DNA from: Nemertoderma westbladi
Taxonomy: Eukaryota; Animalia; Xenacoelomorpha
Direction of reading: 5' to 3'
NCBI GenBank assembly: GCA_032718475.1
Contig: JAUCBJ010006518.1
Coordinates: 10,339 to 74,338 of the forward strand
DNA length: 64,000 bases
Part shown: piece by piece, positions 64 to 62,145 of the stretch
How the letters are laid out: every line of letters begins with the position of its first letter
Numbering within the stretch: position 1 is the stretch's first letter
Translations under genes and position numbers: made by a program
The notes under the pieces: model-generated
Told to the model about the DNA's origin: nothing
What the model saw: the letters and a program-made list of their open reading frames with translations, nothing else
The model's database searches: none

Positions 64-3000
64 GTTAGTATATACCTTAATATTAATATGTTACAGATGT
101 CATTGTGGCACGTATAGGTTAACTTTTTTCGACATTATTTTAATATAAAAGAGCCAGAGCAATTGCATTTTCATTTAATTAAACTAGTGAAACTTGCGTT
201 CAAAGTTACTAATCGAGCAACTTCAGACAATTGCCAATTATAGCAGTTCGCACACGCACACAGTACAATTGCAACTTTCCCTCTTAAGGCTTCTGCAAAG
301 TTTAGAAAATTATATTGTAACCAAAAATATTTATAATATCTAATATAAAGGAAATGGTAGTAATTTATGTTGTTTACATCACCTATAACGTGATTTGATA
401 TACCCCATTATAAGACATGGTCAAAACCCTCCAGCTAAGTGTTGACAATATAGGTGTGTGTGTAACTAACTCCGACACGTGTTATAATTATTTCTTTCAA
501 ATTTTTTATGCTATGGGCTGTGCAACCGTAAGAACCCTTCAACAACCAAATACATTTATTTTTTTTTCTCCTAAAGATCCAAAACCGACTGACGGAAGAA
601 GAAGACAAGGCTAAGCATTTATCCAAACAGAAAACCAAACAGGAGACCCTGATCCAAGATCTCGAGGAGAGAATCACCAAGGAAGAGAAGATCCGTCAGG
701 ATCTCGAGAAAGTCAAGCGGAAGTACGAAACTGAAATAAACGACCTTAACGAACAGCTGAATGAACTCCGGAACGAGTTGGCCGAACTGCGATTGCAACT
801 CGCGAGGAAGGAAGACGAGCTGAATCAGGCGTTGTACAGAGTAGATGAAGAGGCCGGAGCCAAAGTCGCCGCTCTCAAACATGCCCGCGAGTTGCAGATT
901 AATATCAGCGAGTTGCAGGAAGATTTGGATTCGGAGCGCGCGTCTCGGAGTAAAACGGAGAAGCAGAAGAGATCCATAGCCGAGGTTAGTGAGGCCGAAG
1001 TTTGTGAGGCCGAGCTTAGTAAGGCCGAGGTTTCAGTAAGTTGTATACAAACCCGTTACAATCAATGGTAATTATTAGAATGACAAATGTTTATCCTGAA
1101 ATACTGGAAAATCGTAACGTAAATGGTAACCTCCTATTATAAATAGTTTGAGGCCAGATAACCGGCCAGATCCGAACTTTAGTTAGAATAAGAATATCAT
1201 TTATATAGAAGACACTACAAAATAAAGGACAAAATACAAGGTAGAAAAAAATGTCACACAATTTTTCTGAAAATATTAACCCAGCCCACCCTGCTCACAC
1301 TTCGATCTTACAATCAATGGGACACGATGTTTGGTATGGGGTTATTCTACATAATTTTTATTATTTCTCTTAACTTAATTTGTTGTAGGAACTAGAACAG
1401 ATGCGAACGGATTTGGAGTTCCGAGAGGAATCTAAGCAACAGGCCCACGAACTGCGGGACAAACGGGAGACGGAGATGAAAGAGCTGAGGGTCAGTATAG
1501 AGGCGGATAACAAGGCGCACGAACAGCAGATAACGGAGGCCAGACAGAAATATAATAAAAGTTAGTATTTGTGTTTAAGTATTTGTATTTATTGGTGGTT
1601 GACCTACAACAGTGGCTGTATGTATATCAGTGCTATTGGCAGTGGGGAAGCCAGGATGTGGTTAAATTGATGACATACAAGATATTGGGTAGTATTTCCA
1701 GGTCTACCTTTTATCTTAAGAGCCGCTAGCATACATTAATGGGGTGAATACAAAACAAAGATACAAACACTATAAAGAACTACAAAACCCATGATGTGTT
1801 AACTTTCGTTTATTGTTTTGGTTCCCCCAACACGCCTCTGTAACGTGCCCCTTTAACTAACCTGCTCCTTTAAATGGCAATGGAACCTAACGCTCTTTGG
1901 GATGTAACGCTCTTTGTTATCTAACGCTCTTTGGGACAACGCGACTTTACCTGTTTGTTTTTTACAGGTCCTAAAGAGCGTCAAGTCCCAAAGAGCGTTA
2001 GGTCCCAAAGAACGTTAGGTCCCAAAGAGCGTTAGGTCCCAAAGAGCGTTAGGTTCCAAAGAGCGTTAGGTCCCAAACATAGTTAGGTCCCAAAGAGCGT
2101 TAGGTCCCAAAGAGCGTACGGTCCCAAACAGAGTTAGGTCCCAAACAGAGTTAGGTCCCAAAGAGCGTTAGGTCCTAAAGAGCGTCAAGTCCCAAAGAGC
2201 GTTAGGTCCCAGAGAGCTTTAGGTCCCAAAGAGCGTTAGGTCCCAAAGAGCGTTAGGTCCCAAAGAGCGTTAGGTCCCAAACATAGTTAGGTCCCAAACA
2301 GAGTTAGGTCCCAAAGAGCGTTAGGTCCCAAAGAGCGTTAGGTCCCAAAGAGCGTTAGGTCCCAAAGAGCGTTAGGTCCCAAACATAGTTAGTAAATAAG
2401 CAGGTTATTAAAGGAGCAGATTACAGAGGCGTGTTGGGGGAACCAAAACAATAAACGGAAATTAACATATGTTACAAGATTATGCAGGTTTACTTAATTG
2501 GGTCTTTGTTTTGTACTCATCCTACATTAATTAATGTGAGTACTATAATATTGATTTATAACGAAAACGCATAATAAATCTTATAAACTCGACGTGTATT
2601 TGTTATATTGGTAGACCTACATAATAATGTCAGTATGTGTTCTAGGCCCGTATATAGTTAGGCTAACTAAGCGCATGGCAGTTATATTAAAAGCAACACA
2701 TAATAATATAACATACCATTAATAATATTCCACGTACCTCCACCACTTAATTATCACTTATTACGTGAACCATAATCTAATGTAATGATATATTTAATTT
2801 GTAGAATTTCAGTTAAGTTTTGTTGTTTTATTTAAAGGAGTTTTTAAAGATAAATGGTCCTTAATTATTCCAAAATTCAGGGTCGATTTTTATCGGCGAA
2901 TTTTCAACATTCTGAATACTTTTATTGTTGAAGAGCTTCCAACTGATTTAACATCTGTTTTGTGAATATCTTTGTGTATTCGGCTTCCATATCTTTACCC

Positions 3001-6000
3001 CCCTTGGCTATAACTTCGCTTATCGCGTTACCGTATTCGCTCTGGAACCATTTAAACCAATGCTGGTTGAGCAGTAGAAGAGATCCATTCTTCCATAAAG
3101 CCTCCCCTTCAACGCTTTTATCGAGACCTTCAAACAAACTCTGCAATACATTTAGTTTCGCTTTGAGGATCGCGAGTCTTTCCTCAGGTTTAGTATTCCT
3201 CAGAAGAACTTGTTGTGTTGACAGTAGATTCTCCCGCTGAGCTCCGAACTTCGGCTCAACAAATCTCATCTTTATGAACTCCGCAGCTTTCTTCGGGAAG
3301 AATTCATTGAGTCCGAGTTGCTTCCAATCGTGGATGAGGGCTTCCCCGATTCCTGAGACGGCGTCGAATACTTCGTTAGCGAGTCGTTGGTCGGGGTTGA
3401 TGGGGTCCTTGAACCATGTGTGGAACCGGCACAACGACGCCAAACCCGCCACATCGATCAACGCGTAGGAGCGGAGGAAACCAGCCAACGCCTCGGGATC
3501 TTTCGCCAACTGCGGCCCCAGTGTCGATAACTTTCCGTTGTTTACTATATCTCCCTGGTAACCCAACTTTATATCATCTTCACGCATCAACACTCGCGAC
3601 TGCACTACAGACTTAAGCAGTCCAATAACATCGCTTTCAGATTTCTTGAAGACTTGGTTGAAATATTTGTTGTCTTTGTGGAATTTCTCAACGTTTTCAT
3701 ATATTCCGTCCCATATATTCCTCTCGATGTTAACTCCTATCTCCTTGGCAACTTCTACCATGTGTTTATGGAAGCTCGGGTCATCCTGGTTCACTCCGTA
3801 CATTTCTGTAAGTCGATTCTTCTCTTCGTTTAGCGAGGCATCGTCTGCGCGAAACAAAATTGTTTGATATTAAAAGTAGAAAACTGCGAAACGATTGTAT
3901 TTATTATATTACCACATTGATTGTAAAATTGGAAAGGAGTTCAAATATAACATTAACATAGAAATAAATAGTAACACGGCTTGATATTAATTGTTTAATC
4001 ATAAATTGGTAGACCGCACAGTATTCCAGAGAACTATGTTAAAATACTAATTAAACTAATAATACAAATAAAACCCTGAGAATACATTCAATACCGTCTG
4101 TGATCTTCCACATTAAAACCTTATACCAGTTTTAAAAATTTCCTTCAAAAGTTGTGTTAGTTAAAGTTGTGGATCCATACATCCCCGTGTATGTGGCCCG
4201 TTCCTCACCTACCTTGGTGGAACCATACATCCCCGTGTATGTGGCCAGTTCCTCGCCTACCTTGGTGGAACAATTCATCCCCGTGTATGTGGCCCGTTCC
4301 TCACCTACTTTGGTGGAACAATTCATCCCCGTGTATGTGGCCCGTTCCTCACCTACTTTGGTGGAACAATTCATCCCCGTGTATGTGGCCCGTTCCTCAC
4401 CTACTTTGGTGGAACAATTCATCCCCGTGTATGTGGCCCGTTCCTCACCTACTTTGGTGGAACAATTCATCCCCGTGTATGTGGCCCAGTTCCTCACCTA
4501 CCTTGGTGGAACAATTCATCCCCGTGTATGTGGCCCGTTCCTCACCTACCTTTGTGGAACAATTCATCCCCGTGTATGTGGCCCGTTCCTCACCTACCTT
4601 GGTGGAACAATTCATCCCCGTGTATGTGGCCCGTTCCTCACCTACTTTGGTGGAACAATTCATCCCCGTGTATGTGGCCCGTTCCTCACCTACTTTGGTG
4701 GAACAATTCATCCCCGTGTATGTGGCCCGTTCCTCACCTACCTTGGTGGAACAATTCATCCCCGTGTATGTGGCCCGTTCCTCACCTACCTTGGTGGAAC
4801 AATTCATCCCCGTGTATGTGGCCCGTTCCTCACCTACTTTGGTGGAATAATTCATCCCCGTGTATGTGGCCCGTTCCTCACCTACTTTGGTGGAACAATT
4901 CATCCCCGTGTATGTGGCCCGTTCCTCACCTACTTTGGTGGAACAATTCATCCCCGTGTATGTGGCCCGTTCCTCACCTACCTTGGTGGAACAATTCATC
5001 CCCGTGTATGTGGCCCGTTCCTCACCTACTTTGGTGGAACAATTCATCCCCGTGTATGTGGCCCGTTCCTCACCTACCTTGGTGGAACAATTCATCCCCG
5101 TGTATGTGGCCCGTTCCTCACCTACTTTGGTGGAACAATTCATCCCCGTGTATGTGGCCCGTTCCTCACCTACCTTGATGGAACAATTCATCCCCGTGTA
5201 TGTGGCCCGTTCTTCACCTACCGTGGTGGAACAATTCATCCCTGTGTACGTGGCCCGTTCCTCACCTACCTTGGTGGAACAATTCATCCCCGTGTATGTG
5301 GCCCGTTCCTCACCTACTTTGGTGGAACAATTCATCCCCGTGTATGTGGCCCGTTCCTCACCTACCTTGGTGGAACAATTCATCCCCGTGTATGTGGCCC
5401 GTTCCTCACCTACTTTGGTGGAACAATTCATCCCCGTGTATGTGGCCCGTTCCTCACCTACCTTGGTGGAACAATTCATCCCCGTGTATGTGGCCCGTTC
5501 CTCACCTACTTTGGTGGAACAATTCATCCCCGTGTATGTGGCCCGTTCCTCACCTACCTTGGTGGAACAATTCATCCCCGTGTATGTGGCCCGTTCCTCA
5601 CCTACTTTGGTGGAACAATTCATCCCCGTGTATGTGGCCCGTTCCTCACCTACTTTGGTGGAACAATTCATCCCCGTGTATGTGGCCCGTTCCTCACCTA
5701 CTTTTGTGGAACAATTCATCCCCGTGTATGTGGCCCGTTCCTCACCTACCTTGGTGGAACAATTCATCCCCGTGTATGTGGCCCGTTCCTCACCTACTTT
5801 GGTGGAACAATTCATCCCCGTGTATGTGGCCCGTTCCTCACCTACTTTGGTGGAACAATTCATCCCCTTGTATGTGGCCCGTTCCTCACCTACCTTGGTG
5901 GAACAATTCATCCCCGTGTATGTGGCCCGTTCCTCACCTACTTTGGTGGAACAATTCATCCCCGTGTATGTGGCCCGTTCCTCACCTACCTTGGTGGAAC

Positions 6001-9000
6001 AATTCATCCCCGTGTATGTGGCCCGTTCCTCACCTACTTTGGTGGAACAATTCATCCCCGTGTATGTGGCCCGTTCCTCACCTACTTTGGTGGAACAATT
6101 CATCCCCGTGTATGTGGCCCGTTCCTCACCTACCTTGGTGGAACAATTCATCCCCGTGTATGTGGCCCGTTCCTCACCTACTTTGGTGGAACAATTCATC
6201 CCCGTGTATGTGGCTCGTTCCTCACCTACTTTGGTGGAACAATTCATCCCCGTGTATGTGGCCCGTTCCTCACCTACCTTGGTGGAACAATTCATCCGCG
6301 TGTATGTGGCCCGTTCCTCACCTACCTTGGTGGAACAATTCATCCCCGTGTATGTGGCCCGTTCCTCACCTACCTTGGTGGAACAATTCATCCCCGTGTA
6401 TGTGGCCCGTTCCTCACCTACCTTGGTGGAACAATTCATCCCCGTGTATGTGGCCCGTTCCTCACCTACCGTGGTGCAACAATTCATCCCCGTGTATGTG
6501 GCCCGTTCCTCACCTACCTTGGTGGAACAATTCATCCCCGTGTATGTGGCCCGTTCCTCACCTACTTTGGTGGAACAATTCATCCCCGTGTATGTGGCCC
6601 GTTCCTCACCTACCTTGGTGGAACAATTCATCCCCGTGTACGTGGCCCGTTCCTCACCTACCGTGGTGGAACAATTCATCCCCGTGTATGTGGCCCGTTC
6701 CTCACCTACCTTGGTGGAACAATTCATCCCCGTGTATGTGGCCCGTTCCTCACCTACCTTGGTGGAACAACAATTCATCCCCGTGTATGTGGCCCGTTCC
6801 TCACCTACCTTGGTGGAACAATTCATCCCCGTGTATGTGGCCCGTTCCTCACCTACCTTGGTGGAACAACAATTCATCCCCGTGTATGTGGCCCGTTCCT
6901 CACCTACCTTGGTGGAACAATTCATCCCCGTGTATGTGGCCCGTTCCTCACCTACCTTGGTGGAACAACAATTCATCCCCGTGTATTTGGCCCGTTCCTC
7001 ACCTACTTTGGTGGAACAATTCATCCCCGTGTATGTGGCCCGTTCCTCACCTACCTTGGTGGAACAACAATTCATCCCCGTGTATTTGGCCCGTTCCTCA
7101 CCTACTTTGGTGGAACAATTCATCCCCGTGTATGTGGCCCGTTCCTCACCTACCTTGGTGGAACAATTCATCCCCGTGTATGTGGCCCGTTCCTCACCTA
7201 CCTTGGTGGAACAATTCATCCCCGTGTATGTGGCCCGTTCCTCACCTACCTTGGTGGAACAATTCATCCCCGTGTATGTGGCCCGTTCCTCACCTACCTT
7301 GGTGGAACAATTCATCCCCGTGTATGTGGCCCGTTCCTCACCTACCTTGGTGGAACAATTCATCCCCGTGTATGTGGCCCGTTCCTCACCTACCTTGGTG
7401 GAACAATTCATCCCCGTGTATGTGGCCCGTTCCTCGCCTACCTTGGTGGAACAACAATTCATCCCCGTGTATGTGGCCCGTTCCTCACCTACCTTGGTGG
7501 AACAATTCATCCCCGTGTATGTGGCCCGTTCCTCATCTACCTTGGTGGAACAATTCATCCCCGTGTATGTGGCCCGTTCCTCACCTACTTTGGTGGAACA
7601 ATTCATCCCCGTGTATGTGGCCCGTTCCTCACCTACTTTGGTGGAACAATTCATCCCCGTGTATGTGGCCCGTTCCTCACCTACCTTGGTGGAACAATTC
7701 ATCCCCGTGTATGTGGCCAGTTCCTCACCTACCTTGGTGGAACAATTCATCCCCGTGTATGTGGCCCGTTCCTCACCTACCTTGGTGGAACAATTCATCC
7801 CCGTGTATGTGGCCCGTTCCTCATCTACCTTGGTGGAACAATTCATCCCCGTGTATGTGGCTCGTTCCTCACCTACCTTGGTGGAACAATTCATCCCCGT
7901 GTATGTGGCCAGTTCCTCACCTACCTTGGTGGAACAATTCATCCCCGTGTATGTGGCCCGTTCCTCACCTACTTTGGTGGAACAATTCATCCCCGTGTAT
8001 GTGGCCCGTTCCTCACCTACTTTGGTGGAACAATTCATCCCCGTGTATGTGGCCCGTTCCTCACCTACTTTGGTGGAACAATTCATCCCCGTGTATGTGC
8101 CCGTTCCTCACCTACCTTGATGGAACAATTCATCCCCGTGTATGTGGCCAGTCTCGAAGTCCAGATGATGATGCCCCCAGAAGTAGTACTCGTCTCCCGT
8201 CAACGCCGTCGCGCGCTCCGCCACTTGCGTCATCAGCGCGATCGCGTAGGTATCTCGCATCTCTGTTGCCTCGATTGAGGCGAACCGAGCGTATGGATGT
8301 GGGTTATCGGTCGCTATCTGACACAGGTGATAGACCCCTCGCTTCAATCTAATTATTGAAACATTATACTTTTATTAGTTTATTTAATAGTATATAAGTT
8401 CTACTCTGTTTAGGTACTTGTAAATGCACAGTGGACTGTTAATTTTTAAGTTTCATTCTGTTTAAAAGAAAATTTCTAATTCATTACAAAAACACAACAT
8501 TCATTTTTACTATTTCCAAATTTTTTGGTCTTTCGGTGACAATTTTTATATATATTAAAATATTCCATTGACAAATCTTATAGTTTTAGAATTTTATATA
8601 CATATTCGTGTATTAAATGAAATCCACTAACTTGTCTGTTTCTCTGGCCATAATATATTGCATGTAGTCACTGAATGACCATTCCAAAACGTTATCAATA
8701 CCGAGTGTCTCCCAATCTCTTATAAACATATTAGAATGACTGGCGTCTCCAACAACGTGTTCGTTTATGGCTGAAATATATTTAATTGATAAAATGTAAT
8801 ATATTTTTTATATTTAGTCCTGTAATATAATAACTGGAAGTGAAACGTTGAATGCAATGTTAGTACTTTTTAGTAGAGGAAAGCTGTTGATATAAAATGT
8901 CTGAATGTTAACTGACATCAATCAGATTTCAACATTCAAATGTTAGACGTTCAATTTCGGCAGTGTAACCGTAACGTAGCATAATGTTATACCATATTTC

Positions 9001-12000
9001 TGTTACACGGCGGAAAATATTTTTAAATATTATGGCTTAGCCAATTATTATTGTATTATAATATGACCTAAAGCTCCTCGAAATGATCTTTACGAAAATG
9101 TAACATATTTTATTAATTCCACTGTAAGTGCCACAAAACTGAAACTAAAACAAGTCCTGTACCAACCTGTTTGATAAACACCCAATGGGCGTGGGTTCGG
9201 TTGGTACATTAGGAAGTGGGTATTGTAACTGGTAAACAACAACGTCATGTCGCTGCGAACCGCGCTGGCTGCAATCATTCGTTCCATTGGGTTGATGTGA
9301 TGGGCTTTGAACCAATTAGCGTTGAGGTTATTATCCCGGAAGGTTCCTGATTGGCTATCCAACGTGGTCTTAATAAATCTCCCGAAATCGGAAGAATTTC
9401 TGGACGAGATCTTCAAACCCCCGGGTTTACTGAGTAAACGGCTTACATGCATTAACGACATTGTATACTGCTTTAAGACGTTTATTAAAAAACAAAATGT
9501 TAAATAATTATTGATTAAGCTTATTAATTTTGAATATAATATATTTTTGTGTAATTTTTTTCGCCAAGCCGACACTGAATGAGTGCTGTGGAGTTTTACG
9601 TTCAATAAGTAGTGAACTTATCCAAACATCTGTTGGTGCTGATTTGATTTGTAAATTTACTTTACATATTCGATGAGCATGTGGTGTTACATAAACGTCT
9701 ACGAAGATTAGGTGTGTGCGTCGGCGTAACTGTGTTAGTGACGTTTTTCACGGGCGGAATAAATTACGTCGGTTGTATTGTGTAGTTGCTTTGCGTTTTG
9801 GCCGCCTTAACAACCAACAGCATACGCCTAGTTATCTTTATAACGTTGGTTTCTTGTATAATGAATGGATGTTTCCTGTTGCCTTACAACCTTTGTGACA
9901 TAATCCTCAAGTACCCGAGGACCCACAGATGGCGCTATTCAGCTATTGGCCCCGCTACTACAATTCATCATGTTCTAAATATTTTAATAAAAATTTCGGA
10001 TTTAAAAATCAAGCATTATTTACTCTGATAAATTGTACCGGTATTTGAATGTGGGGCGAGCCACGAAGTTGGCGGAGCCTTAGCGAATTGACACTGTTAG
10101 GGGGTGGGTCAATTTATGCAAATAGTTGTCGTCGTCGTCGTCGTCGTCGTTGTCGTCGTCGTCGTCGTTGTCGTCGTCGTCGTTGTCGTTGTCGTCGTCG
10201 TTACGATTTTGACATGCTAATAACTTTGTCGGATTTAAAGCTGCCAAGTTGAAAATTTGTAGGTATCAATATGAGCAAAAGTTGAGATTTTTGAGAGACT
10301 TTCAGACACCATCAGTGCAATGGTCTCCCGCTAGAGGGCCACATGTCTAAACATTAAATGGCCACCCATTTCTTTGCTTTTAATCCGTTTAAGCTGAAAC
10401 TTGGGAAGTATGTACTAGACCATTAGCTGTAAATTTCAAAGGAGGCTAATCTGTCTGCAGTTCTCCAGTCTGCCGCTAGAGGGCGAAATGTCCCGAATGT
10501 GAAATTATTCTTCCATTTAGTTGTTTATGATCTGATTACGCTGAAACTTGTCATATATGTACTAGATGACATCCTGAGTCTTTGTGTGGATTGTAATCGG
10601 TCCGAAGTTTTCCAGTCTCCCGCTAGAGGGCCACATGTCTAAACATTAAATGGCCACCCATTTCTTTGCTTTTAATCCGTTTAAGCTGAAACTTGGGAAG
10701 TATGTACTAGACCATTAGCTGTAAATTTCAAAGGAGGCTAATCTGTCTGCAGTTCTCCAGTCTGCCGCTAGAGGGCGAAATGTCCCGAATGTGAAATTAT
10801 TCTTCCATTTAGTTGTTTATGATCTGATTACGCTGAAACTTGTCATATATGTACTAGAAGACATCCTGAGTCTTTGTGTGGATTGTAATCGGTCCGAAGT
10901 TTTCCAGTCTCCCGCTAGAGGGCCACATGTCTAAACATTAAATGGCCACCCATTTCTTTGCTTTTAATCCGTTTAAGCTGAAACTTGGGAAGTATGTACT
11001 AGACCATTAGCTGTAAATTTCAAAGGAGGCTAATCTGTCTGCAGTTCTCCAGTCTGCCGCTAGAGGGCGAAATGTCCCGAATGTGAAATTATTCTTCCAT
11101 TTAGTTGTTTATGATCTGATTACGCTGAAACTTGTCATATATGTACTAGAAGACATCCTAAGTCTTTGTGTGGACAGTAATCGGTCCGGAGTTTTCGAGT
11201 CTGCCGCTAGAGGGCGAAATGTAGGAAAGTGATAACCTTTGCGAATTCCTTGATCTTAATCTATTTAAGCTGAATTTTGGAATATACAGTACCGGTATGT
11301 ACTAGACCACATGCCTCGTCTTTGTGAGGAAGGTGATCGATCCGTAGTTCTTTAATATGCCGCTAGAGGGCTAAATGTATGAAAGTGAAAACCTTCCAAC
11401 ATTTCGTTATTTATGATCCGTCAATCGGAAACTTGGTAGATATGTAATAGACCATAGGATGTGGCTTTGTAGGGAAACTAATCCTTCCTTCTTCAGTTAC
11501 CCAGTCTCCCGCTAGAGGGTTAACGTTTTCCGGGAAAATCTTCTCCTATGTTTTTATAATCCTTTCGAGTTGATACTTAGCATTAACTCATTTCACGTGC
11601 TGCGCGAAGGCCCCACTTCGTGTTGTGTTAGAATCTTACGTATTTAAACCATATCCCAGAATATAGTGTTAATGAGATTGCATGAAATTTGAAACAGAGA
11701 TAGTTTCATTCAACTCCTCTTGGGTGGGTGAGCCAGAATTTTTATTTTTGCTTTCAATCTTTAGCTACAAACGTTTGAAAAAGGTGTCTCCAGCGATATT
11801 ACACCAGTTACACCGCAGTTATTCTTCAACCTTATAGCTGTTTGTTGGTACCAATGGAAAGCTGGCCCTGCAAGGATTCCAAATATGTAACACAATGTGA
11901 ATTTTGTTGCAAGAACAACTGAGATATGGGCGATCAAAAGTTGCATTGTTTTGCATCTGCGCTGGGCTATTTTATTATATTTAATAAATACAACAATCTG

Positions 12001-36000: not shown

Positions 36001-39000
36001 AGGTAGGGAGCAAGGGAAGGAAAGAAATACAAGCGTTAATACAGGTAGGGAGCAAGGGAAAGAAATACAGGCGTTAATACAGGTAGGGAGCAAGGGAAAG
36101 AAATTCAGGCGTTAATACAGGTAGGGAGCAAGGGAAGGAAAGAAATACAGGCGTTAATACAGGTAGGGAGCAAGGGAAAGAAATACAGGCGTTAATACAG
36201 GTAGGGAGCAAGGGAAAGAAAAAATACAGGCGTTAATACAGGTAGGGATGGAAGCAAGGGAAAGAAATACAGGCGTTAATACAGGTAGGGAGCAAGGAAA
36301 AGAAATACAGGCGTTAATACAGGTAGGGATGGAAGCAAGGGAAAGAAATACAGGCGTTAATACAGGTAAGGAGCAAGGGAAAGAAAAAAGTACAGGCGTT
36401 AATACAGGTAGGGATGGAAGCAAGGGAAAGAAATACAGGCGTTAATACAGGTAGGGAGCAAGGAAAGAAATACAGGCGTTAATACAGGTAGGGATGGAAG
36501 CAAGGGAAAGAAATACAGGCGTTAATACAGGTAGGGATGGAAGCAAGGGAAAGAAATACAGGCGTTAATACAGGTAGGGAGCAAGGGAAAGAAAAAATAC
36601 AGGCGTTAATACAGGTAGGGAGCAAGGGAAAGAAATACAGGCGTTAATACAGGTAGGGAGCAAGGAAAAGAAATACAGGCGTTAATACAGGTAGGGATGG
36701 AAGCAAGGGAAAGAAATACAGGCGTTAATACAGGTAGGGAGCAAGGGAAAGAAATACAGGCGTTAATACAGGTAGGGAGCAAGGGAAAGAAAAAATACAG
36801 GCGTTAATACAGGTAGGGATGGAAGCAAGGGAAAGAAATACAGGCGTTAATACAGGTAGGGAGCAAGGGAAAGAAATACAGGCGTTAATACAGGTAGGGA
36901 TGGAAGCAAGGGAAAGAAATACAGGCGTTAATACAGGTAGGGATGGAAGCAAGGGAAAGAAATACAGGCGTTAATACAGGTAGGGAGCAAGGGAAAGAAA
37001 AAATACAGGCGTTAATACAGGTAGGGAGCAAGGGAAAGAAAAAATACAGGCGTTAATACAGGTAGGGAGCAAGGGAAAGAAATACAGGCGTTAATACAGG
37101 TAGGGAGCAAGGGAAAGAAATACAGGCGTTAATACAGGTAGGGAGCAAGGGAAAGAAATACAGGCGTTAATACAGGTAGGGAGCAAGGGAAAGAAATACA
37201 GGCGTTAATACAGGTAGGGAGCAAGGGAAAGAAATACAGGCGTTAATACAGGTAGGGAGCAAGGGAAAGAAATACAGGCGTTAATAGAGGTAGGGAGCAA
37301 GGGAAAGAAATACAGGCGTTAATACAGGTAGGGAGCAAGGGAAAGAAAAAAGTACAGGCGTTAATACAGGTAGGGATGGAAGCAAGGGAAAGAAATACAG
37401 GCGTTAATACAGGTAGGGATGGAAGCAAGGGAAAGAAATACAGGCGTTAATACAGGTAGGGAGCAAGGGAAAGAAATACAGGCGTTAATACAGGTAGGGA
37501 GCAAGGGAAAGAAATACAAGCGTTAATACAGGTAGGGAGCAAGGGAAAGAAAAAATACAGGCGTTAATACAGGTAGGGAGCAAGGGAAAGAAATATAGGC
37601 GTTAATACAGGTAGGGAGCAAGGGAAAGAAATACAGGCGTTAATACAGGTAGGGAGCAAGGGAAAGAAATACAGGCGTTGATACAGATAGGGAGCAAGGG
37701 AAAGAAATACAAGCGTTAATACAGGTAGGGAGCAAGGGAAAGAAAAAATACAGGCGTTAATACAGGTAGGGAGCAAGGGAAAGAAAAAATACAGGCGTTA
37801 ATACAGGTAGGGATGGAAGCAAGGGAAAGAAATACAGGCGTTAATACAGGTAGGGAGCAAGGGAAAGAAATACAGGCGTTAATACAGGTAGGGAGCAAGG
37901 GAAAGAAATACAAGCGTTAATACAGGTAGGGAGCAAGGGAAAGAAAAAATACAGGCGTTAATACAGGTAGGGAGCAAGGGAAAGAAATACAGGCGTTAAT
38001 ACAGGTTGGGGAGCAAGGGAAAGAAATACAGGCGTTAATACAGGTAGGGAGCAAGGGAAAGAAATACAGGCGTTAATACAGGTAGGGAGCAAGGGAAAGA
38101 AAAAATACAGGCGTTAATACAGGTAGGGATGGAAGCAAGGGAAAGAAATACAGGCGTTAATACAGGTAGGGAGCAAGGGAAAGAAATACAGGCGTTAATA
38201 CAGGTAGGGAGCAAGGGAAAGAAATACAAGCGTTAATACAGGTAGGGAGCAAGGGAAAGAAAAAATACAGGCGTTAATACAGGTAGGGAGCAAGGGAAAG
38301 AAATACAGGCGTTAATACAGGTTGGGAGCAAGGGAAAGAAATACAGGCGTTAATACAGGTAGGGAGCAAGGGAAAGAAATACAGGCGTTAATACAGGTAG
38401 GGAGCAAGGGAAGGAAAGAAATTCAGGCGTTAATACAGGTAGGGAGCAAGGGAAAGAAATACAGGCGTTAATACAGGTAGGGAGCAAGGGGAGGAAAAAA
38501 ATTCAGGCATTAATACATGGTACTAAGAAACAATAATGGTACTAACAAACAATAATGGTACTAACAAACAATAATGGTACTAACAAACAATAATGGTACT
38601 AACAAACAATAATGGTACTAATAAACAATAATGGTACTAATAAACAATAATGGTACTAACAAACAATAATGGTACTAATAAACAATAATGGTACTAACAA
38701 ACAATAATGGTACTAACAAACAAAAATGGTACTAACAAACAATAATGGTACTAACAAACAATAATGGTACTAACAAACAATAATGGTACTAATAAACAAT
38801 AATGGTACTAATAAACAATAATGGTACTAACAAACAATAATGGTACTAACAAACAATAATGGTACTAATAAACAATAATGGTACTAATAAACAATAATGG
38901 TACTAACAAACAATAATGGTACTAACAAACAATAATGGTACTAACAAACAATAATGGTACTAACAAACAATAATGGTACTAACAAACAATAATGGTACTA

Positions 39001-42000
39001 ATAAACAATAATGGTACTAACAAACAATAATGGTACTAACAAACAATGATGGTACTATAACAAACAATAATGGTATTAACAAACAATAATGGTACTAACA
39101 AACAATAATGGTACTAACAAACAATAATGGTACTAACAAACAATAATGAAACAATAATGGTACTAAGAAACAGATGGTACTATAACAAACAATAATGGTA
39201 GTAACAAACAATAATGGTACTAACAAACAATAATGGTACTGACAGACAATAATGGTACTAACAAACAATAATGGTACTAACAAACAATAATGGTACAAAC
39301 AGACAATAATGTTACTAACAAACAATAATGGTACTAACAAACAATAATGGTACAAACAGACAATAATGGTACTAACAAACAATAATGGTATTAACAAACA
39401 ATAATGGTACAAACAGACAATAATGGTACTAACAAACAATAATGGTACTAACAAACAATAATGGTACTAATAAACAATAATGGTACTAAGTAACAATAAT
39501 GGTACTAACAAACAATAATGGTACTAACAAACAATAATGGTACTAACAAACAATAATGGTACTAACAAACAATAATGGTACTAACAAACAATGATGGTAC
39601 TAACAGACAATAATGGTACTAACAAACAATAATGGTACTAACAAACAATAATGGTACTAACAAACAATAATGGTACTAACAAACAATGATGGTACTAACA
39701 GACAATAATGGTACTAACAAACAATAATGGTACTATAACAAACAATAATGGTACTAACAAACAATAATGGTACTAACAAACAATAATGGTACTAACAAAC
39801 AATAATGGTACTATAACAAACAATAATGGTATTAACAAACAATAATGGTACTAACAAACAATAATGGTACTAACAAACAATAATGGTACTAACAAACAAT
39901 AATGGTACTAACAAACAATAATGGTACTAACAAACAATAATGGTACTATAACAAACAATAATGGTATTAACAAACAATAATGGTACTAACAAACAATGGT
40001 GGTACTAACAGACAATAATGGTACTAACAAACAATAATGGTACTAACAAACAATAATGGTACTAACAAACAATAATGGTACTAACAAACAATAATGGTAC
40101 TAACAAACAATAATGGTACTAACAAACAATAATGGTACTATAACAAACAATAATGGTATTAACAAACAATAATGGTACTAACAAACAATAATGGTAATAA
40201 CAAACAATAATGGTACTAATAAACAATAATGGTACTAACAAACAATAATGGTACTAACAAACAATGATGGTACTAACAAACAATAATGGTACTAACAAAC
40301 AATAATGGTACTAACAAACAATAATGGTACTAACAAACAATGATGGTACTATAACAAACAATAATGGTATTAACAAACAATAATGGTACTAACAAACAAT
40401 AATGGTACTAACAAACAATAATGGTACTAACAAACAATAATGGTACTAACAAACAATAATGGTACTAACAAACAATAATGGTAATAACAAACAATAATGG
40501 TACTATCAAACAATAATGGTACTAACAAACAATGATGGTACTAACAAACAATAATTGTACTAACAAACAATAATGGTACTAACAAACAATAATGGTACTA
40601 ACAAACAATGATGGTACTATAACAAACAATAATGGTATTAACAAACAATAATGGTACTAACAAACAATAATGGTACTAACAAACAATAATGGTACTAACA
40701 AACAATAATGGTACTAACAAACAATAATGGTACTAACAAACAATGATGGTACTAACAAACAATAATGGTACTAACAAACAATAATGGTAATAACAAACAA
40801 TAATGGTACTATCAAACAATAATGGTACTAACAAACAATGATGGTACTAACAAACAATAATTGTACTAACAAACAATAATGGTACTAACAAACAATAATT
40901 GTACTAACAAACAATAATGGTACTAACAAACAATAATGGTACTAACAAACAATAATGGTATTAACAAACAATAATGGTACTATCAACCAATAATTTTATT
41001 TATTTATTTTAATGCAACAACATTAGCCAATCAAGGCTTTAGCTGGATATTGACCGACAAACAACCAACAACAACCAACATTGTTCAATGAACATATAGC
41101 ATATTCTTATGCACCGGTTAAGATATTTGGCGCCTTTAAAAATGTAACAAAATCTGCGCAAATATACCACTATATAACAGCTAAAGGGAAAGCAAACTAA
41201 AGTTGCAACGTGGTAAAATAAAAATACCAAACCAACCCAGCGCTTATTATTTGTAAAGTAGCATTTGTAATAAAAATTAGTCCAACAAATTATTAGGCGT
41301 ACTACAAAAATTGAACGTAACAACGTTTTTAGAGAATATAAACTATAATTACTTTTTTATTTTATTTACTCTGATTACTTTTTACCATAGGATAAAAGTG
41401 ACCTGGATAAAAAGAAGAAGAATTACGAAGTTCAACTGCAAGATATACAGTCTCGTCTGGGCGTCTCTGAGAAGGCAAAGGCCGATCTGGAAGTCAGGGT
41501 ATCTAGGCAACAGACTGAAATCGAGGCGTCATTGGCCCAATTAGAGAAAGAAGAAAGTATGATAGCCGTCTTACAGAGAACCAATACCACGTTAGTAATT
41601 TAGTTTTGGTTAGTTAGTTAGACTGTTTGTTAGCTATAGTTAATCAGGTAGAATAATCTCCGAAATTACCCAAAACTTATAAGATTATGACTTAGTTAGT
41701 AGTCAGACATGGCTGTGATAGGCTTAGGATTACAAGATCATAATATCCTCTATACGTTCTAGTCGTACTCAAGGATTTATTAACTCGAGGATTTATTAAC
41801 TCAAGGATTTATTAACTCAAGGATTTATTAACTCAAGGATTTATTAACTCAAGGATTTATTAACTCGAGGATTTATTAACTCGAGGATTTATTAACTCGA
41901 GGATTTATTAACTCGAGGATTTATTAACTCAAGGATTTATTAACTCAAGGATTTATTAACTCAAGGATTTATTAACTCAAGGATTTATTAACTCGAGGAT

Positions 42001-45000
42001 TTATTAACTCGAGGATTTATTAACTCGAGGATTTATTAACTCAAGGATTTATTAACTCAAGGATTTATTAACTCGAGGATTTATTAACTCAAGGATTTAT
42101 TAACTCAAGGATTTATTAACTCAAGGATTTATTAACTCAAGGATTTATTAACTTAAACACTGAACTTGATCTTCACCATTTATTAGTAACACTGAACTCT
42201 ACCATGTTTATAGTTTATAGAAGTATGATGGATGTATTCGTATTGTATCTGTTTTATATGATACTTTGTATGATGGAAGATATACGAATAAAATTAATAA
42301 ATAAATAAATATATTAAGTGTATTTTATTATCTGGTTACAAGCTGTATTTCCAGTGAAAAGCATTGGGACATGTCCCACTTGTAACTGAAATTATTCGAA
42401 AAATTTCCCACATATTGTAGTTACAGACATGGGACAAAAGGTTACAGGTGGGACACACATTTATCGCAATCTGGACTCATTCTACAATATATTCAAGCTT
42501 CGACACAATATACACTGAATTCTACACACTCTAAGCTTTCAGAAAATATATTGGTTATTGGGGTTTTCGAAAAAAAAAATTATTGTAAAAAATCTTCTAA
42601 TTTTGGCAACTTTTTTGTGTTTCCAGCCTAATAGACTTTATAGCAAATCGGTTCTCTAAATGTTAGTTTAGCGTCAAGGGAATATGTTTTGTTTCACAGC
42701 ATCCAGAATGAATGCACTGACGCCCAGGAGTTACTGGCTGATGAGACCCGACTTAAACTGCAGTTACAGACGAGATTGAGGCAGTTGGAGTCCGATAAAG
42801 AAGGATTACAGGACCAGTTAGAGGAAGAAGAACAGCTGAAAAGGAATTTAGATAAACAGTCAGCGACTCTTCAACAACAGGTAGGAGTGAGTGAAAATAA
42901 AGCCACGAGGATCAGAACACTGTAAAGTACTTTGCAACAACTATGTATGAAGTTTTCATATATTATAAGTGATAGAAACTGCACAAATTAAATTTGTTGC
43001 TGTATAAATAAATGTAAAAATAAACATAAATTATGTTATAAAAAGGTTACCTTATATTTAAACTGGCGTTTGGAGCAATGTTAATAGTTTATAGCTACTG
43101 GTTATTAAGGGCTACCGGTAGGTAATGCATTAGGCCTATCTTGCTGTCAGGCAATTATTAATAATTTCCAACATTGTTTATGTGGTAACCATTGACGGCG
43201 TGTTGTAAAGTCACGCTAATGGGACATTACATAAATAGTAATACACCAATACAATACTAAATGTACAGGCTGTAATGTCCTCAAAAGCTGTAAAGTGCTA
43301 AATTGCAACTCACTGTTAATACTAACGGCATTGAATAATGTTACAATGTTGGAATAATAACTATTTACATGTGTGTAAAGTAGCACTTTACAGAGTGATG
43401 ATCCGAGTGGCTTTGTTACACGAACGAACGTTAGTGAGTGAGTGAAAATAAAGCCACGAGGATCAGAACACTGTAAAGTACTTTGTAACAAGTATGTAAG
43501 TAGTTTTATTCCAAAATGTTAAAATTACGAAATGATTGTATATATATTATAAGTGATAGAAACTGCACAAATTATATTAGTTGCTGTATAAATAAATGTA
43601 AAAATGACATAAATTATGTTATAAATAAGTTACCTTATACGTAATGCTACAATTTTGGAATAAAGTTAGTAACTCATGTAGTACCGGTATTTAATTCTAG
43701 AAATAAATAATTTATTATTTCGCATTATCCCAATAACACGTAGGGTGGCATTACATTGTCGGGACCGCTCAATAATAATACCATTACACTAATGATATCC
43801 CATTACTGAAACTGAAAAGGCCCTGTTTTCGAATTATCGAATTAGCTCCAACCTGCACACCTAGCTCCATTTACTGCCGCTGTTTTTTAAACAATTGATA
43901 CAAATATTTGTATCTCTGAATCTCATTATCTATTAATAATAAATCAACTCTTTAACCGTAATTTGTATGCAGATTTCGGATCTTAAAAAGAAAACTGACG
44001 ACGATTCCATTGCTATAGAAGCTGTCGAGGATGCGAAGAAGAAGTTGTTGAGAGAGATGGACGCCCTGACAGCCAGGATGGAGAACCTGTCAGCAGACAA
44101 CGAAAAGCTAGAGAAAACTAAGAGAAGACTTCTCGCAGAGCTGGACGACTCTGTGTTGGAGATCGACCATCAACGCGGCAAGGTATCTAATTCTTTATAT
44201 TTTGTTAATGAAAACTTTCCGAAACATTGGCCGTACATTGGCGTTACATTATAAACTATCCGAAACATTGGCCGTACATTATTTGTCTTAGGGACGGTAT
44301 TTCATTTACACCGAGCAGTTTGCTTAAAAAACGAAACTTTATTTTTTTTAATATTACACTATATTGTTTGTGAGGGGTTGCAGTGGAAACTACATTTCAG
44401 CCATTCGGCGAAATGGCCCCCACCACGCCGTGATGAAATCTATCGATGTTTTTTTTTACTATAGTGATGTAAAGTGCTAATTATAGCAACGTTTGCGTTG
44501 ATTGTATTTATTATAATTTTGGAACTTTGAAATAAAATTTGTTTATTTTCATTTAGGTCGCCGAGTATGAGAAGAAACAGAGGAAATTTGATCAACATTT
44601 GAATGAAGAAAAATTAAAATCGGAAAGTTTGTCATCCGAGAAAGAAAGATGCCAGTCTGATGGTAAGTTCAGTTGAGAGAAAAATACGTGGGCGTTGCGT
44701 TGTGAGGTTCACAGTTTAATCGTAATTTATATTATTTAAATTTTTATATTATTATTATTAAAGTTAATTAAACGATAAGACGGATAGTATGTGTTGAGTG
44801 GCGATAATAAATGGCAATTTAATTTTATAGTGAGACAAAAAGACACTCAAATACTTTCAATTTCGCGGGATTTGGAAGAACTTCGGGAACGTTATGATGA
44901 ACAGGAACGAGCCCATAGGAACATGAAGAACGAGTACGATAGTCTAATATCGAGCAAGGACGACGCCGGGAAAAATGTAGGTTAAATGTAGAACGAGTAC

Positions 45001-48000
45001 GATAGTCTAATATCGAGCAAGGACGACGCCGGGGAAAATGTAGGTTAAATGTAGAACGAGTACGATAGTCTAATATCGAGCAAGGACGACGCCGGGAAAA
45101 ATGTAGGTTAAATGTAGAACGAGTACGATAGTCTCGTATCGAGCAAGGACGACGCCGGGAAAAATGTAGGTTAAATGTAGAACGAGTACGATAGTCTAAT
45201 ATCGAGCAAGGACGACGTCGGGAAAAAGGTAGGTTAAATGTAGAACGAGTACGATAGTCTAATATCGAGCAAGGACGACGTCGGGAAAAAGGTAGGTTAA
45301 ATGTAGAACGAGTACGATAGTCTAATATCGAGCAAGGACGACGCCGGGAAAAATGTAGGTTAAATGTAGAACGAGTACGATAGTCTAATATCGAGCAAGG
45401 ACGACGCCGGGAAAAATGTAGGTTAAACGTAAACGTAGCCGGGGGTGTAATTAGGTAATACACACCCAGAAAAAGTAAAATATACGAATAAGTAAGGAAA
45501 GCAACCTTCCTCTACCTGTTTAATAGATTATTTGATTATTCCATATGTTTTAGGTGCACGAACTGGAGAGGGCTAAGCGATCGATGGACGCCCAGTTAGC
45601 TGAGCTAACGAACCAGTTGGAGGAAACTGAAGACCAGTTGCAACTGGCGGAGGACGAGAAACAGAGGTTGGAGGTGAACTTCTCGGCGGCCAAGGCGGCC
45701 CACGAACGGGAACTGCAGGCCAAGGATGAGCAGGCGGAAGAGAAGAGGAAGAGCATCCTGCGACAACTGCGGGAGATGGAGACCGACCTGGAAGACGAGC
45801 GGAAGCAAAAGTCGTCCGCGATAGCCATGAAGAAGAAATACGAAGCGGATCTAAAGATACTAGATAGTCAGCAGGACATTGCCAATAAGAATAAGGAGGA
45901 CGCTCTCAGACAGTACCGTAAGATTTCGGGTAAGTTCTAATTATTATTATACTATAAAGTTATAGTTTGTTGTGTTTAATAGAAATTGTTATTTATTTAG
46001 TAATTAATAATTGTTTGTTATTGCATAAACCAAACCCATTGAACTAGATTACAGTATACATACAGACGGTGTTGTTTAGGCCTACCTACTCGAACCGGTA
46101 GCTGCAGTTCCTGAGTAGCGTGAACATACACTGTTTCGACATACCGGTACTGAGGCCTATCGACTAACTACGGTGTGCGGAGATGTAGGCCTACTGTTGT
46201 ACCGGTACACTATACAGATGGTCAGAGAAGTGAAAGTATGCTGCTGTGGGAGACCTGTACCAGGAGTACCGGTAACATGCCTAACTAATATGCTGTGTCC
46301 TATGGGCTCTACTGTAATTTTACCCTCCGTAATAACAAATCCACCCGCCGTATAAAGCGTCATTATGTGCATCCTCTTCCATCTCTTTGGAGTTACATAA
46401 TATTTATCCTCGTTATTTGGATGGTTCCTATTTATATATAAATGTGAACTTTTCAGGACAAGTGAAGGAATTACAGCGGGAATTAGATGACGTTTCTAGA
46501 CAACGAGATGAAATGGGGGCTTCTTCTAAGGAAGCGGAGAGAAAGGCGAGATCATTGGAAGGCGATATCAAACAGCTTCAAGATGTTAGTTATAGGCCTA
46601 ATTCTAATAAAAATAAATAAATAATTATCTATATTAAAATATATAACCCCCAACCCAGGCAACAACTATTACTATCTCAGCTATTGTGTTGCTGCCGTTC
46701 CCACACCGTACACCCCAATTTACGTTAATATATTTAAGGTAAGGAACAGGTTACTGTGGCACGCTATTCTAACCAAAACAATAAACTAAAGTCAATAGAA
46801 CACGTTAGTTATATATCGACCCCCTCCATAATCTATATCTGTAACAAATTATGAGGTGGTGATTGGTAACCTAATTCAATAACGATTTGTCTTTAATATT
46901 ATTATCTTGATTTTTTTAATTGAATTAATTTTAATTATTGTGGTCTTTATCGGTTGTTACATCTACTACTCTACAGGAACTTATTGCGGCGGAGCGACAA
47001 CGCAAAGCCGTTGAGGCTGAGCGAGACGAGTTGGCGGAAGAGACGGCCGGGTTAGCTAGTAACCGTGGCAACGCACTCGACGAGAAACGCCGACTCGAGT
47101 CGAAAATACAGCAGTTGGAAGACGATCTGGAGGAGGAGCAATCGAACGTATCGCTGTTCCAAGAAAAGTTAGAATGTTCAAATATTTCTACAATAATTTG
47201 TCGCTATCAGTTATTGTTTAAGTTTAGGTAATCCTACATCAAACTTTGTGTTGCAGATCGCACAAGTCGCAGCAGCAAGTAGATACGCTGACCACTGACC
47301 TAGCAACCGAACGATCTATCACGCAGAAGCTTGACAACGACAGACTCATGTTGGAACGACAGAATCGCGACCTCAAGCAGAAGCTGCAAGACTTCGAGGA
47401 AACTCAGAAGTCGCGAATGAGAACAACGATCCAGGGACTGGAGCAGAAGCTCAACCAGGCCGAGGAGCAGTTGTCCGCCGAGTCCAGGGACCGACAGGCC
47501 GCTAGTAAATCAAACAGAAAATTGGAGAAGAAAATAAAAGATTTGATCATGCAATCAGAAGACGAAAGAAAACAAGCCGATGTGTACAAGGAGCAGGTAG
47601 GTGGAGGTGTACAACTCTTAAACACCTCCCAGTGGGTTGTCGATCACATAAACTGCAGCTGGTTTGGGTTATAAACACCCACAATCTCTCTGGGTCCATG
47701 ATTTATCAATGAATATACGTTAGAGGTTACAGCCCAAACAATTATAACTCTATTGGTTGCAACCCAGATGTGATCCCATTGGTTACTAAAATCCAACCCT
47801 GCTGACTTACATATTGTAGCGACAACTATTATACCTAACAACAGTTACACATACACAGTTTGTTGTTGTTCCATTAGATCTCCTAGGTTACTGGATTACA
47901 ATTAATTTGTTGTTGATTAGGTTGATAAATACAACCACCGGCTGAAAGCGCAGAAGAGGCAGTTAGAAGAAACCGAGGAAGAAGTTACCAGGGTGAACGC

Positions 48001-58730: not shown

Positions 58731-59809
58731 GGATTAGCAGATTAGGAGGGTCCCCTATTTGACACAAGTGCCCTAAAGTAAACTCAATGATGGGCTTTGG
58801 GACTATATATCACGGCTTGAAGTAAATGACTGTAATATATTATTCTTCCTTCAGTATGATTGTACCGTTTTCTACGGTCACGCTCACGTTACGCCTACAC
58901 TGCTACACCCCCACCTACCAACACACCCCTACATACAGTATACATGCTGACATGTACCGTCCTGCCATAAAGCCAATACATCTGACTGTCGACCCTCAAG
59001 CTCAAACTATTGATTCTCAATTACTGAATTATATTATGTTTCCTATCTCTCGTTTATTGTTTTGGTTCCTTTCAACCCGCCTCGGTAAACCTTCTTCGTT
59101 ATTAACTAACAGGTGTAAGTGTAGGCGTACCGGTGGCGTTTCGTTTACTCCCGTTTTAATTAGGGTTTCGGACCACCACTAGACTGCTAGACTAGAAGTA
59201 TGTAGGCCCTAGTTCTGTAGTTACAGTTACTTTGGACTTAGGCCTACTCAGCAACATTCTGAGGCTGACATGCAGTAGTAGGCCTAGCTGCCTAGTGTTA
59301 CTGCTACTGCTACAGGCTGACTCACAGATTGAGCGGCTAAGGCGAATTTTTCATTCAACGTCGCGTCGCTCTTCGCATTGGCAATCCCTCCTTGTGTGGC
59401 GTGTGGCGCCATCACCAAGTCTCAAGTCACCCTACGCCGCCATCATTTCATTTAGCCCTTACAACAGTACATACTGCTGTACTGCAGTACTGTATAGATT
59501 TATCCTTATGAATGCGGGCGGATGCATCGACTGAAATCGATCTGCGATGGATACCGGTAGGGCAGGCAGGTTAACTGTATAACTTTACCAAACAGAATAA
59601 TGAAATGAGTGAAAGTACCGGGTGGCTAAATTATTAATTATTTCTTTTGATAGTACCGATTTATTTTAATTTTTTATTTAGATTTACAATGTAGTACTGT
59701 AGTAGGCTTTTAATTTAATTACTACCATATTGGAATGAGATGCCCTACTGCCCTATGCTATACCGGTATATATATATTAATTACCCAGTACCATAGTATT
59801 TTTGGAAAA

Positions 59810-61180: not shown

Positions 61181-62145
61181 TTAATTATGTTAGTTGTGAT
61201 AAGTAATGAAATGGTCCTTGTTCAGTCCTAGTTCCGGAGTTCGAACCCCTTCGTCGACTCTTCACCCGTATTATCTGCATCGAGGCTACCCGGTTACTCA
61301 TCTACCGGGACGGCTAGCAAAACAAGAATCTAAAGGGCGCGGGAAACTGTTGCACATCAGTAGCGAGCATTTCTCTATCAGCAGTCGCATTGATTCTATA
61401 ACGCTCTCGAACAAAAATTCCATTAGCGATAACAATTATAATAATCCTTATATTTTATGTTAAAATTAATTAATTTGTTGTTTAAGTTTGTTGTTCTAAT
61501 CATTTGCTAATAGATTAAGTAAAGTTGACACTCAATTACGCGTTTATTATATACTGAGTGTATGAATATGATACATTGATAATATTACTGTGATTATTTA
61601 TTGGAATTGGCTTGTCATTGTCCTTTCTTTCTCTAATTTTTCATGAAATTTTCATTTTTCTCATTTCTAATTTCTCTCATTTTTTAAGAGGTAGTAGAAA
61701 ATTTTATACATTTTCATGTTACTTGCCTAAATCTGATATTTTCTTATATCTTTGTATCTATTGACTCTTTTGAATTTCAACTTTTAATTTTCTGAATATA
61801 ACTAATATATAATAAAAGTTTACTTTAGAGAATTACTCACAGTTATTTGTACCCTGCAATTGTACATCGGGTAGTCTAAACCTTACTTGTTTGTTGTTAT
61901 TCTCCTTATGGACTTCTTTCCTTTCTTGTATCCACATCTCAATCACTTAAGGGATAAATAATAAAGACTCTGAATTTAATCTAAACTGTTTTTATATTTT
62001 TCCATAGCAGTATCTCTATGTTAATCAACCTCACCTCATCGCCTCATCGTCTTGATTTGGATGTGAAGCGATTATACTAACAAGAAACACATAATCGACA
62101 AACAGCAATCTGATTATATTAACTTTATAGACATTTTTAGTAGTG

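Follow-up and report, generated by a model that had tools for sequence, protein, structure and literature searches.

The DNA analysed here is a stretch of 64,000 nucleotides (referred to below as the window) from the xenacoelomorph Nemertoderma westbladi (assembly GCA_032718475.1, contig JAUCBJ010006518.1, positions 10,339 to 74,338 of the forward strand); all positions given below are counted from its first letter. The plus strand of the window encodes the tail half of a non-muscle myosin II heavy chain, and a second gene lies nested antisense on the minus strand, within the myosin intron at 1561-12234. At four exons of these two genes, three belonging to the myosin gene and one to the nested gene, the end of the exon is also the first copy of a tandem array that continues into the following intron and there repeats the 5' splice site (donor). 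A run of Tandem Repeats Finder (TRF) over the window returned 30 rows, among which all four arrays were recovered, with unit lengths of 15, 48, 38 and 63 base pairs (bp). Together with the mapped splice sites, these rows confirm the places originally predicted for the arrays, at donors 985, 8115 (on the minus strand), 12360 and 44977.

One exon of the myosin gene matches the Pfam family Myosin_tail_1 (E 2.8e-41), and a tblastn comparison with a non-muscle myosin homologue of 1,969 amino acids (P0001) is collinear along the myosin exons. The named proteins nearest to the genes of the window are 45-61% identical to them and are scattered across many phyla, the best match of the myosin being 61%. 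The nested gene is expressed and comprises at least four exons (9167-9580, 8632-8770, 8116-8348 and 3844-2925, all on the minus strand), which were delineated from open reading frames (ORFs), a contig of sequencing run X5 and splice sites. The terminal exon (3844-2925), recognised from its ORF and from a match to the loose end of an X5 contig, follows the acceptor GCGCAG/AC and runs to the stop codon; the array carried by this gene is that of the 48-bp unit. Its product has only seven homologues, all of them distant, without a name and 25-34% identical. No family was assigned to it in a Pfam search, a search among longer proteins gave no match and there was no usable Atlas hit.

Splice sites were mapped largely with the contigs of X5, a run that is recorded as 'DNA?' yet holds spliced contigs, and which was treated as RNA-like. 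Derivation of its joints from a retrocopy in DNA would be the alternative, but the DNA runs X1-X3 are without these joints among the joints listed. When placed on the window, X5 contigs give at least eight GT..AG joints, one CT..AC joint (GT..AG on the minus strand) and loose ends. A single contig of 1,380 bases links 41389-41590, 42700-42877, 43970-44180, 44830-44976, 45554-45928 and 46456-46585, and every one of its joints among those listed is GT..AG. Altogether 16 donors were mapped, 12 via X5 (joints, together with loose ends at 12359/12668, 8632/8348 and 8116) and the remaining four (984, 1560, ~47166 and ~48093) via collinearity and GT..AG only. The original prediction counted 17, and the window may contain an additional donor further upstream in the minus-strand gene. 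The donor usage is odd: the 16 sites include five GTTAGT, one GTTAGA, two GTTGGT and five with GTAGG, and only two classic GTAAGT. These counts suggest that T at donor position +3 is common in the introns of this animal.

Arrays that begin at exon ends

When the units are printed in register, unit 1 of each of the four arrays is the end of a real exon. The 48-bp array (4169-8149, minus strand; 82.6 copies, 96% matches) has units of 34 exon and 14 intron bases, and the 63-bp array (44923-45435, plus strand; 8.2 copies, 97% matches) has units of 54 exon and nine intron bases. The 15-bp array (979-1032, plus strand) is degenerate (3.6 copies, 82% matches, score 80), and its unit is made up of six exon bases (GCCGAG) and nine intron bases (GTTAGTGAG). 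A variation in this arrangement is observed in the 38-bp array (12322-38497, plus strand), which extends over 26.2 kilobases (kb) with 673.6 copies and 94% matches. Its unit consists of the final 38 bases of the exon and is entirely exonic, the exon-intron boundary falling exactly between units 1 and 2. This unit begins with GTAAGG and ends with CAG; the GT of the donor opens unit 2, and the repeats read GTAGGG where the counterpart inside the exon copy reads GTAAGG. A unit that spans the boundary, consisting of an exon end plus its donor as first proposed, is therefore literally present in three of the four arrays. The unit of the fourth holds exon bases only, but this array still repeats the donor and contains 638 further copies, or decoys. 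The prediction of GTAGG donors at all three large arrays is correct (GTAGGG for the 38-bp array, GTAGGT for the other two), GTAGG being found at five of the 16 mapped donors.

Microhomology between exon and intron had also been described at each junction. What is seen there is in fact unit 1 against unit 2, the starts of which differ by one base. A comparison with the flank is possible for the 63-bp array only, where the far flank ACGTAAACG resembles the start of the unit, ATGTAGAACG. Ten array units, including those of the four donor arrays, were tested for copies elsewhere in the 64-kb window and none were found, with two exceptions: two inverted 17-bp arrays match each other, and there is one degenerate copy of a 24-bp unit. 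Within the window, the four donor arrays are of local origin.

Much of the length of three introns is accounted for by these repeats. The 38-bp array fills 26,138 of the 29,031 bases of its intron (12360-41390), that is 90% of a 29-kb intron, the 48-bp array fills 3,947 of 4,271 bases (8115 down to 3845) and the 63-bp array occupies 459 of 577 bases (44977-45553). Arrays have lengthened these introns to 577 bases, 4.3 kb and 29 kb, with a remainder outside arrays of approximately 120-410 bases, and it is likely that all three were short before the arrays grew. The 3' part of the 29-kb intron consists of a further array, about 395 unique bases and the acceptor CCATAG/G. This further array, of a 19-bp unit (AATAATGGTACTAACAAAC; 38512-40994, plus strand, 130 copies by TRF), follows directly after the 38-bp array and ends 395 bases before the acceptor. 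Each of its units contains TACTAAC, the branch-point consensus, and a single intron thus combines roughly 640 motifs that resemble donors with roughly 130 that resemble branch points. The 38-bp unit was also considered as a recursive splice site (ratchet point), ..GGCGTTAATACAG/GTAGGG, and was rejected as such because it has 29 purines among its 38 bases and no pyrimidine tract.

Long, near-identical arrays are difficult to assemble, and those described here are too long for short-read contigs to span, which might suggest that the arrays or their sizes are artefacts of the assembly. However, DNA contigs from two other samples, X1 and X2, which come from different studies, break at identical exon-array borders: both end at 8121, inside unit 1 of the 48-bp array, and those of X1 also end at 12355. 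Word depth over the units is well above that of the flanks (for example, 1,542 and 8,997 in X2 against 20.6, these being summed depths over the arrays and not a copy number), and RNA joints support both sides of the introns. It is extremely unlikely, in our view, that the arrays or their sizes are artefactual.

Donor use at the four arrays

The 63-bp array follows the myosin exon at 44831-44976 (plus strand), the final 54 bases of which are copy 1 of the unit. X5 covers 44830-44976 and provides the joints 44661>44830 and 44976>45554, both GT..AG. Since the second of these joints bypasses the entire array, the first donor is the one used. It is followed by seven GTAGGT decoys, five of which are preceded by AAT like the real donor and two by AAG, which is a better match. 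X5 gives no cover over the interior of the array (44996-45457), and this was not taken as evidence beyond the fact that the contig joins across it.

In the nested gene, the exon at 8116-8348 (minus strand) ends in 34 bases that are copy 1 of the 48-bp unit. X5 covers 8116-8305 of this exon, and loose ends of its contigs lie at 8116, 8348 and 8632. One contig of 590 bases covers 8305-8116 and then continues; its 30 loose letters, once reverse-complemented, are those of the exon starting at 3844. Because the contig runs from 8116 into that exon, the donor in use must be 8115, which opens a series of 78 GTAGGT sites. The 77 decoys that follow the real donor include 42 preceded by AAG, as is the real site, and 32 preceded by AAA, which makes them one base weaker. 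Again, the lack of X5 cover over the interior (7900-8060) was not taken as evidence. At both the 63-bp and the 48-bp arrays the most upstream donor is used, and the strict choice of the first donor that was proposed originally is thus borne out for these two by X5 contigs, in the presence of intact decoys.

The exon preceding the 38-bp array (12235-12359, plus strand) was defined by tblastn and splice sites, and its final 38 bases are copy 1. X5 covers 12235-12350 of this exon and provides some cover over the array, where 629 of the 638 GTAGGG decoys read CAG/GTAGGG. Its contigs contain the junction ..AATACAG/GATAAAAGTGACC, which was placed at 12668. We considered whether this loose end represents use of a decoy donor and rejected the idea, as the preceding 27-34 bases are identical at six places, including the exon end: exact copies of the last 34 bases of the exon are present at six places as far as 12700, and the shorter string of its last 27 bases is found 433 times in the window. 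The same identity means that the spliced copy cannot be told from the contigs. Only the first donor of this array keeps the reading frame, because 38 is not a multiple of three and each unit holds a stop codon. For the 15-bp array, the exon end at 984 and the acceptor at 1389 were placed through a collinear match to P0001 that is free of gaps, and donor 985 is thus protein-based only. We infer that the most upstream donor is used at the 38-bp and 15-bp arrays as well. Just after the 15-bp array there is a GTAAGT consensus (1036-1041), which lies 51 bases, or 17 codons in frame, past donor 985. Judged by its sequence, this site could act as an alternative donor and would then insert 17 residues into the myosin rod.

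The strength of the decoys relative to the real donor differs between the arrays, being identical in the 38-bp array, identical or one base weaker in the 48-bp array and stronger in two of seven cases in the 63-bp array. As the decoys are equal or stronger in many copies, the first donor is chosen by its position and not by its strength. A reading frame continued beyond the first donor reaches, as had been predicted, an in-frame stop before a single unit is complete in each of the three large arrays, and RNA spliced at their decoys would probably be degraded. Read-through past donor 985, by contrast, stays open across the 15-bp array.

The decoys themselves are neither decaying nor specially kept. 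For the 38-bp array we analysed anchor intervals with a length of exactly 38 bases (502 of 667), and the two bases of the GT are non-consensus in 6/502 and 0/502 of these, against an average over positions of about 0.8%. Among the 75 of 82 intervals analysed for the 48-bp array the corresponding values are 0/75 and 0/75, and the sole common variant is G/A at position -1 (43 and 32 units). Selection against decoy donors was rejected on this basis, since the decoy GT is no more variable than the other positions of the unit. The opposite possibility is that the arrays are kept for a function, their U1 sites suppressing premature cleavage and polyadenylation, tuning the speed of splicing or soaking up U1 small nuclear ribonucleoprotein. 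The presence of 629 intact CAG/GTAGGG sites in one intron of a gene with spliced X5 contigs, and a decoy GT without decay, would agree with such a role. However, identity is high at all positions and not at the donor bases alone, a pattern compatible with recent expansion or concerted evolution that took place without selection, and the sole common variant of the 48-bp unit weakens the donor in 32 of 75 units. We therefore consider it very unlikely that a function of this kind maintains the arrays.

Origin of the arrays

We think it likely that the arrays are local minisatellites that started at exon ends and have been tolerated because the most upstream donor is used. Each array would have been seeded by a tandem duplication of the slippage type across the exon-intron boundary, and the resemblance between the far flank of the 63-bp array and the start of its unit is compatible with a seed that arose between short direct repeats. 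Unequal exchange or slippage during replication, the ordinary ways in which minisatellites expand, may then have carried the arrays to as many as 83 and 674 units, and the copies may have been homogenised by concerted evolution. Equal conservation of the GT and of other positions points to copies that are young or homogenised, without selection on the decoy GT. Persistence would be a matter of tolerance, in that the spliceosome would take the most upstream donor and leave the copies as inert intron sequence, while transcripts of the three large arrays that were spliced at a decoy would carry a stop and probably be lost.

A different origin has to be weighed for the 29-kb intron, namely that it was born by tandem duplication of an exon segment (a Rogers-type gain), the joined units giving a new CAG/GTAAGG donor. 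The 38-bp unit is compatible with this, as it is the last 38 bases of the exon, begins with GTAAGG and ends with CAG; as in the gains of this type treated in passages of PMC3087553, the duplicated exon end makes the donor and the unit junction reads CAG/GT. Unlike in the Rogers-type scheme, the acceptor and the 3' part of the intron (the 19-bp array, the ~395 unique bases and CCATAG/G) are unrelated to the unit and do not come from a duplicate, and the units of the 48-bp and 63-bp arrays include intron bases. Because the acceptor does not derive from the duplicated unit, birth of the intron by this route is most improbable, and the arrays most likely enlarged introns that already existed.

Several observations weigh against our reading of the arrays as local minisatellites that are tolerated through use of the first donor. 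Their copy numbers rest on one assembly, minor use of decoys would be invisible in contigs, and at the 38-bp array the X5 contigs are compatible with more than one spliced copy. The donor of the 15-bp array was placed through protein collinearity, and splicing at its decoys, or at the GTAAGT at 1036, would add in-frame residues and so escape nonsense-mediated decay. The placement of the arrays also belongs here. A chance test was applied to the genes (570-50750) and to 11 arrays with a period of at least 15, each array being collapsed to one unit and seeding being taken as uniform; the count took in neither overlapping TRF rows of one array, nor the (GTC)n run, nor any array past 50750. Four of the 11 arrays lie on the 16 donors, against 0.63-0.93 expected (P(>=4) 0.0009-0.004, or 0.0001-0.0006 without a 292-bp array). 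Large arrays are carried by three of the five GTAGG donors and by none of the 11 other donors (hypergeometric probability 0.018, calculated by hand), and among the arrays none spans an acceptor AG.

These counts could be explained if the birth or growth of minisatellites were mechanistically coupled to 5' splice sites, by way of polymerase pausing, R-loops or G-rich non-template DNA at GTAGG. The sense strand is indeed G- and purine-rich, with a GC skew of +0.53 over the 38-bp array and of about -0.22 on the plus strand over the 48-bp array, equivalent to +0.22 in the sense of its gene, and a fifth array, of 24 bp, is anchored on a likely branch point. On the other hand, both chance tests are post hoc, having been designed after a single window flagged as odd had been seen, and arrays that touch exons draw the notice of readers. 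The introns are short apart from their arrays, so any seed falls near a splice site, and seven other arrays in the same genes lie off donors, three of them in one cluster (1841-2383). A donor bias is thus compatible with the data but is not established by the two tests, and we regard mechanistic coupling to donors as unlikely. Likewise unlikely is the wider proposal that splice signals (GTAGG donors and, at least once, a branch point) are the preferred places for arrays to arise or grow in this animal, with introns expanding by tens of kb from their own splice sites via a splicing- or transcription-coupled process and hundreds of intact U1 sites per transcript acting in cis on its processing. 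Local seeding and ordinary expansion remain the explanation that we prefer.

The 24-bp array (49221-50618, plus strand, 58.5 copies by TRF) stops 20 bases short of the last myosin exon, which joins in frame and has its first base at 50639. CACTAAC, supplied by the last unit of the array, lies about 24 bases ahead of the acceptor AG, and the probable branch point of the last myosin intron would accordingly be placed in this final unit. The array looks like a 3'-end counterpart of the donor arrays. Degenerate copies of the 24-bp unit are also present at 48140-48230, 50-140 bases past donor 48094 and approximately 1 kb upstream of the main array. It may be that this intron was once short and mostly repeat and was later split by an insertion.

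Several additional features of the window were noted. Two arrays of one 17-bp unit (1887-1936 and 1966-2383) lie 30 bases apart in opposite orientation and form an inverted minisatellite pair. Relative to the single-copy flanks, the word depth of DNA contigs is greater by a factor of 10^3 to 10^5 over three parts of the introns (9993-12085, 42686-43840 and 46613-46843); these parts, the first of which contains the 292-bp array (3.1 copies, 10323-11222), are likely to belong to highly repeated dispersed families. Outside the two overlapping genes, an ORF at 59714-61180 encodes C2H2 zinc fingers (Pfam zf-C2H2, E 1.9e-32) and contains, ahead of the fingers, a coding 39-bp repeat of ten copies (60119-60514) that specifies units of 13 residues (e.g. 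SPENVPHCSATDT). An intronless ORF at 62131-62796 resembles EEF1A lysine methyltransferase 2 (METTL10), with best named matches (EEF1AKMT2) that are at most 50% identical, and may represent either a retrogene or a naturally single-exon gene.

Comparison with known boundary-spanning minisatellites

The design of these arrays was at first treated as new, but the class has already been described, in the form of the 'mirage' minisatellites of amphioxus and of human variable number tandem repeats (VNTRs) located at exon-intron boundaries. The four arrays belong to this class of boundary-spanning ('mirage' or F7-type) minisatellites, in which their size and clustering stand out. For one amphioxus example, the mirage of Adh3, somatic or allelic instability has reportedly been demonstrated. 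The genes in which mirages are described in passages of PMC3087553 and PMC3902484 are Adh3, troponin C, the globins BflGb6 and BflGb9, and PGBD5. According to these passages, their units measure 10-160 bp, several genes per genome are affected, splicing of the mRNA is reported to be normal and mirages are considered as one way in which introns may evolve. As in the arrays described here, tandem units span the exon-intron boundary and multiply the splice signal (PMC3087553). The present host, in contrast, is not Branchiostoma, and where the passages on BflGb6 give 3 and 6 units, the arrays in the window reach 83 and 674. Four such arrays within 45 kb are likewise a departure from what those passages on amphioxus mirages describe.

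The human examples, as presented in parts of PMC1557585, comprise the 37-bp VNTR of F7 intron 7 together with boundary VNTRs in the interferon-inducible gene 6-16, CBS IVS13, LMNB2 and PDGF. In F7, as here, the first monomer spans the boundary and identical 'pseudo-sites' follow the real donor; in a series of 50 constructs the most upstream donor alone was chosen, even over better sites downstream (PMC1557585). Use of the most upstream site, exclusively or for the most part, is a feature of the human cases in these parts of the paper and is seen in our RNA contigs for two arrays. In the genes 6-16 and CBS, splicing also takes place at the first one or two decoys (PMC1557585, same parts), and use of this kind would be invisible in contigs here. 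The F7 repeat has 5-9 copies with four exon bases per unit in that account, whereas the present units have 6-54 exon bases and number up to 674.

A search of the literature for a genome-wide study of such arrays, or of splice sites that seed minisatellites, found none. Taken as a single locus, the window provides a further example of a described oddity. What is unusual is its scale (26 kb and 674 units) and its clustering, two overlapping genes containing four donor arrays plus one array anchored on a likely branch point, and an intron with a few hundred bases outside arrays has reached 29 kb by way of one local repeat. Branch-point-like motifs in two arrays, clustering and scale together keep an origin coupled to splice signals under consideration and would make a genome-wide count worthwhile. 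In comparison with the F7 constructs, the locus amounts to an extreme version of the same experiment performed by nature, with more than 600 identical, intact donors behind the real one in a single pre-mRNA, and despite these decoys the mature RNA still carries the exon-exon junction expected of normal splicing.

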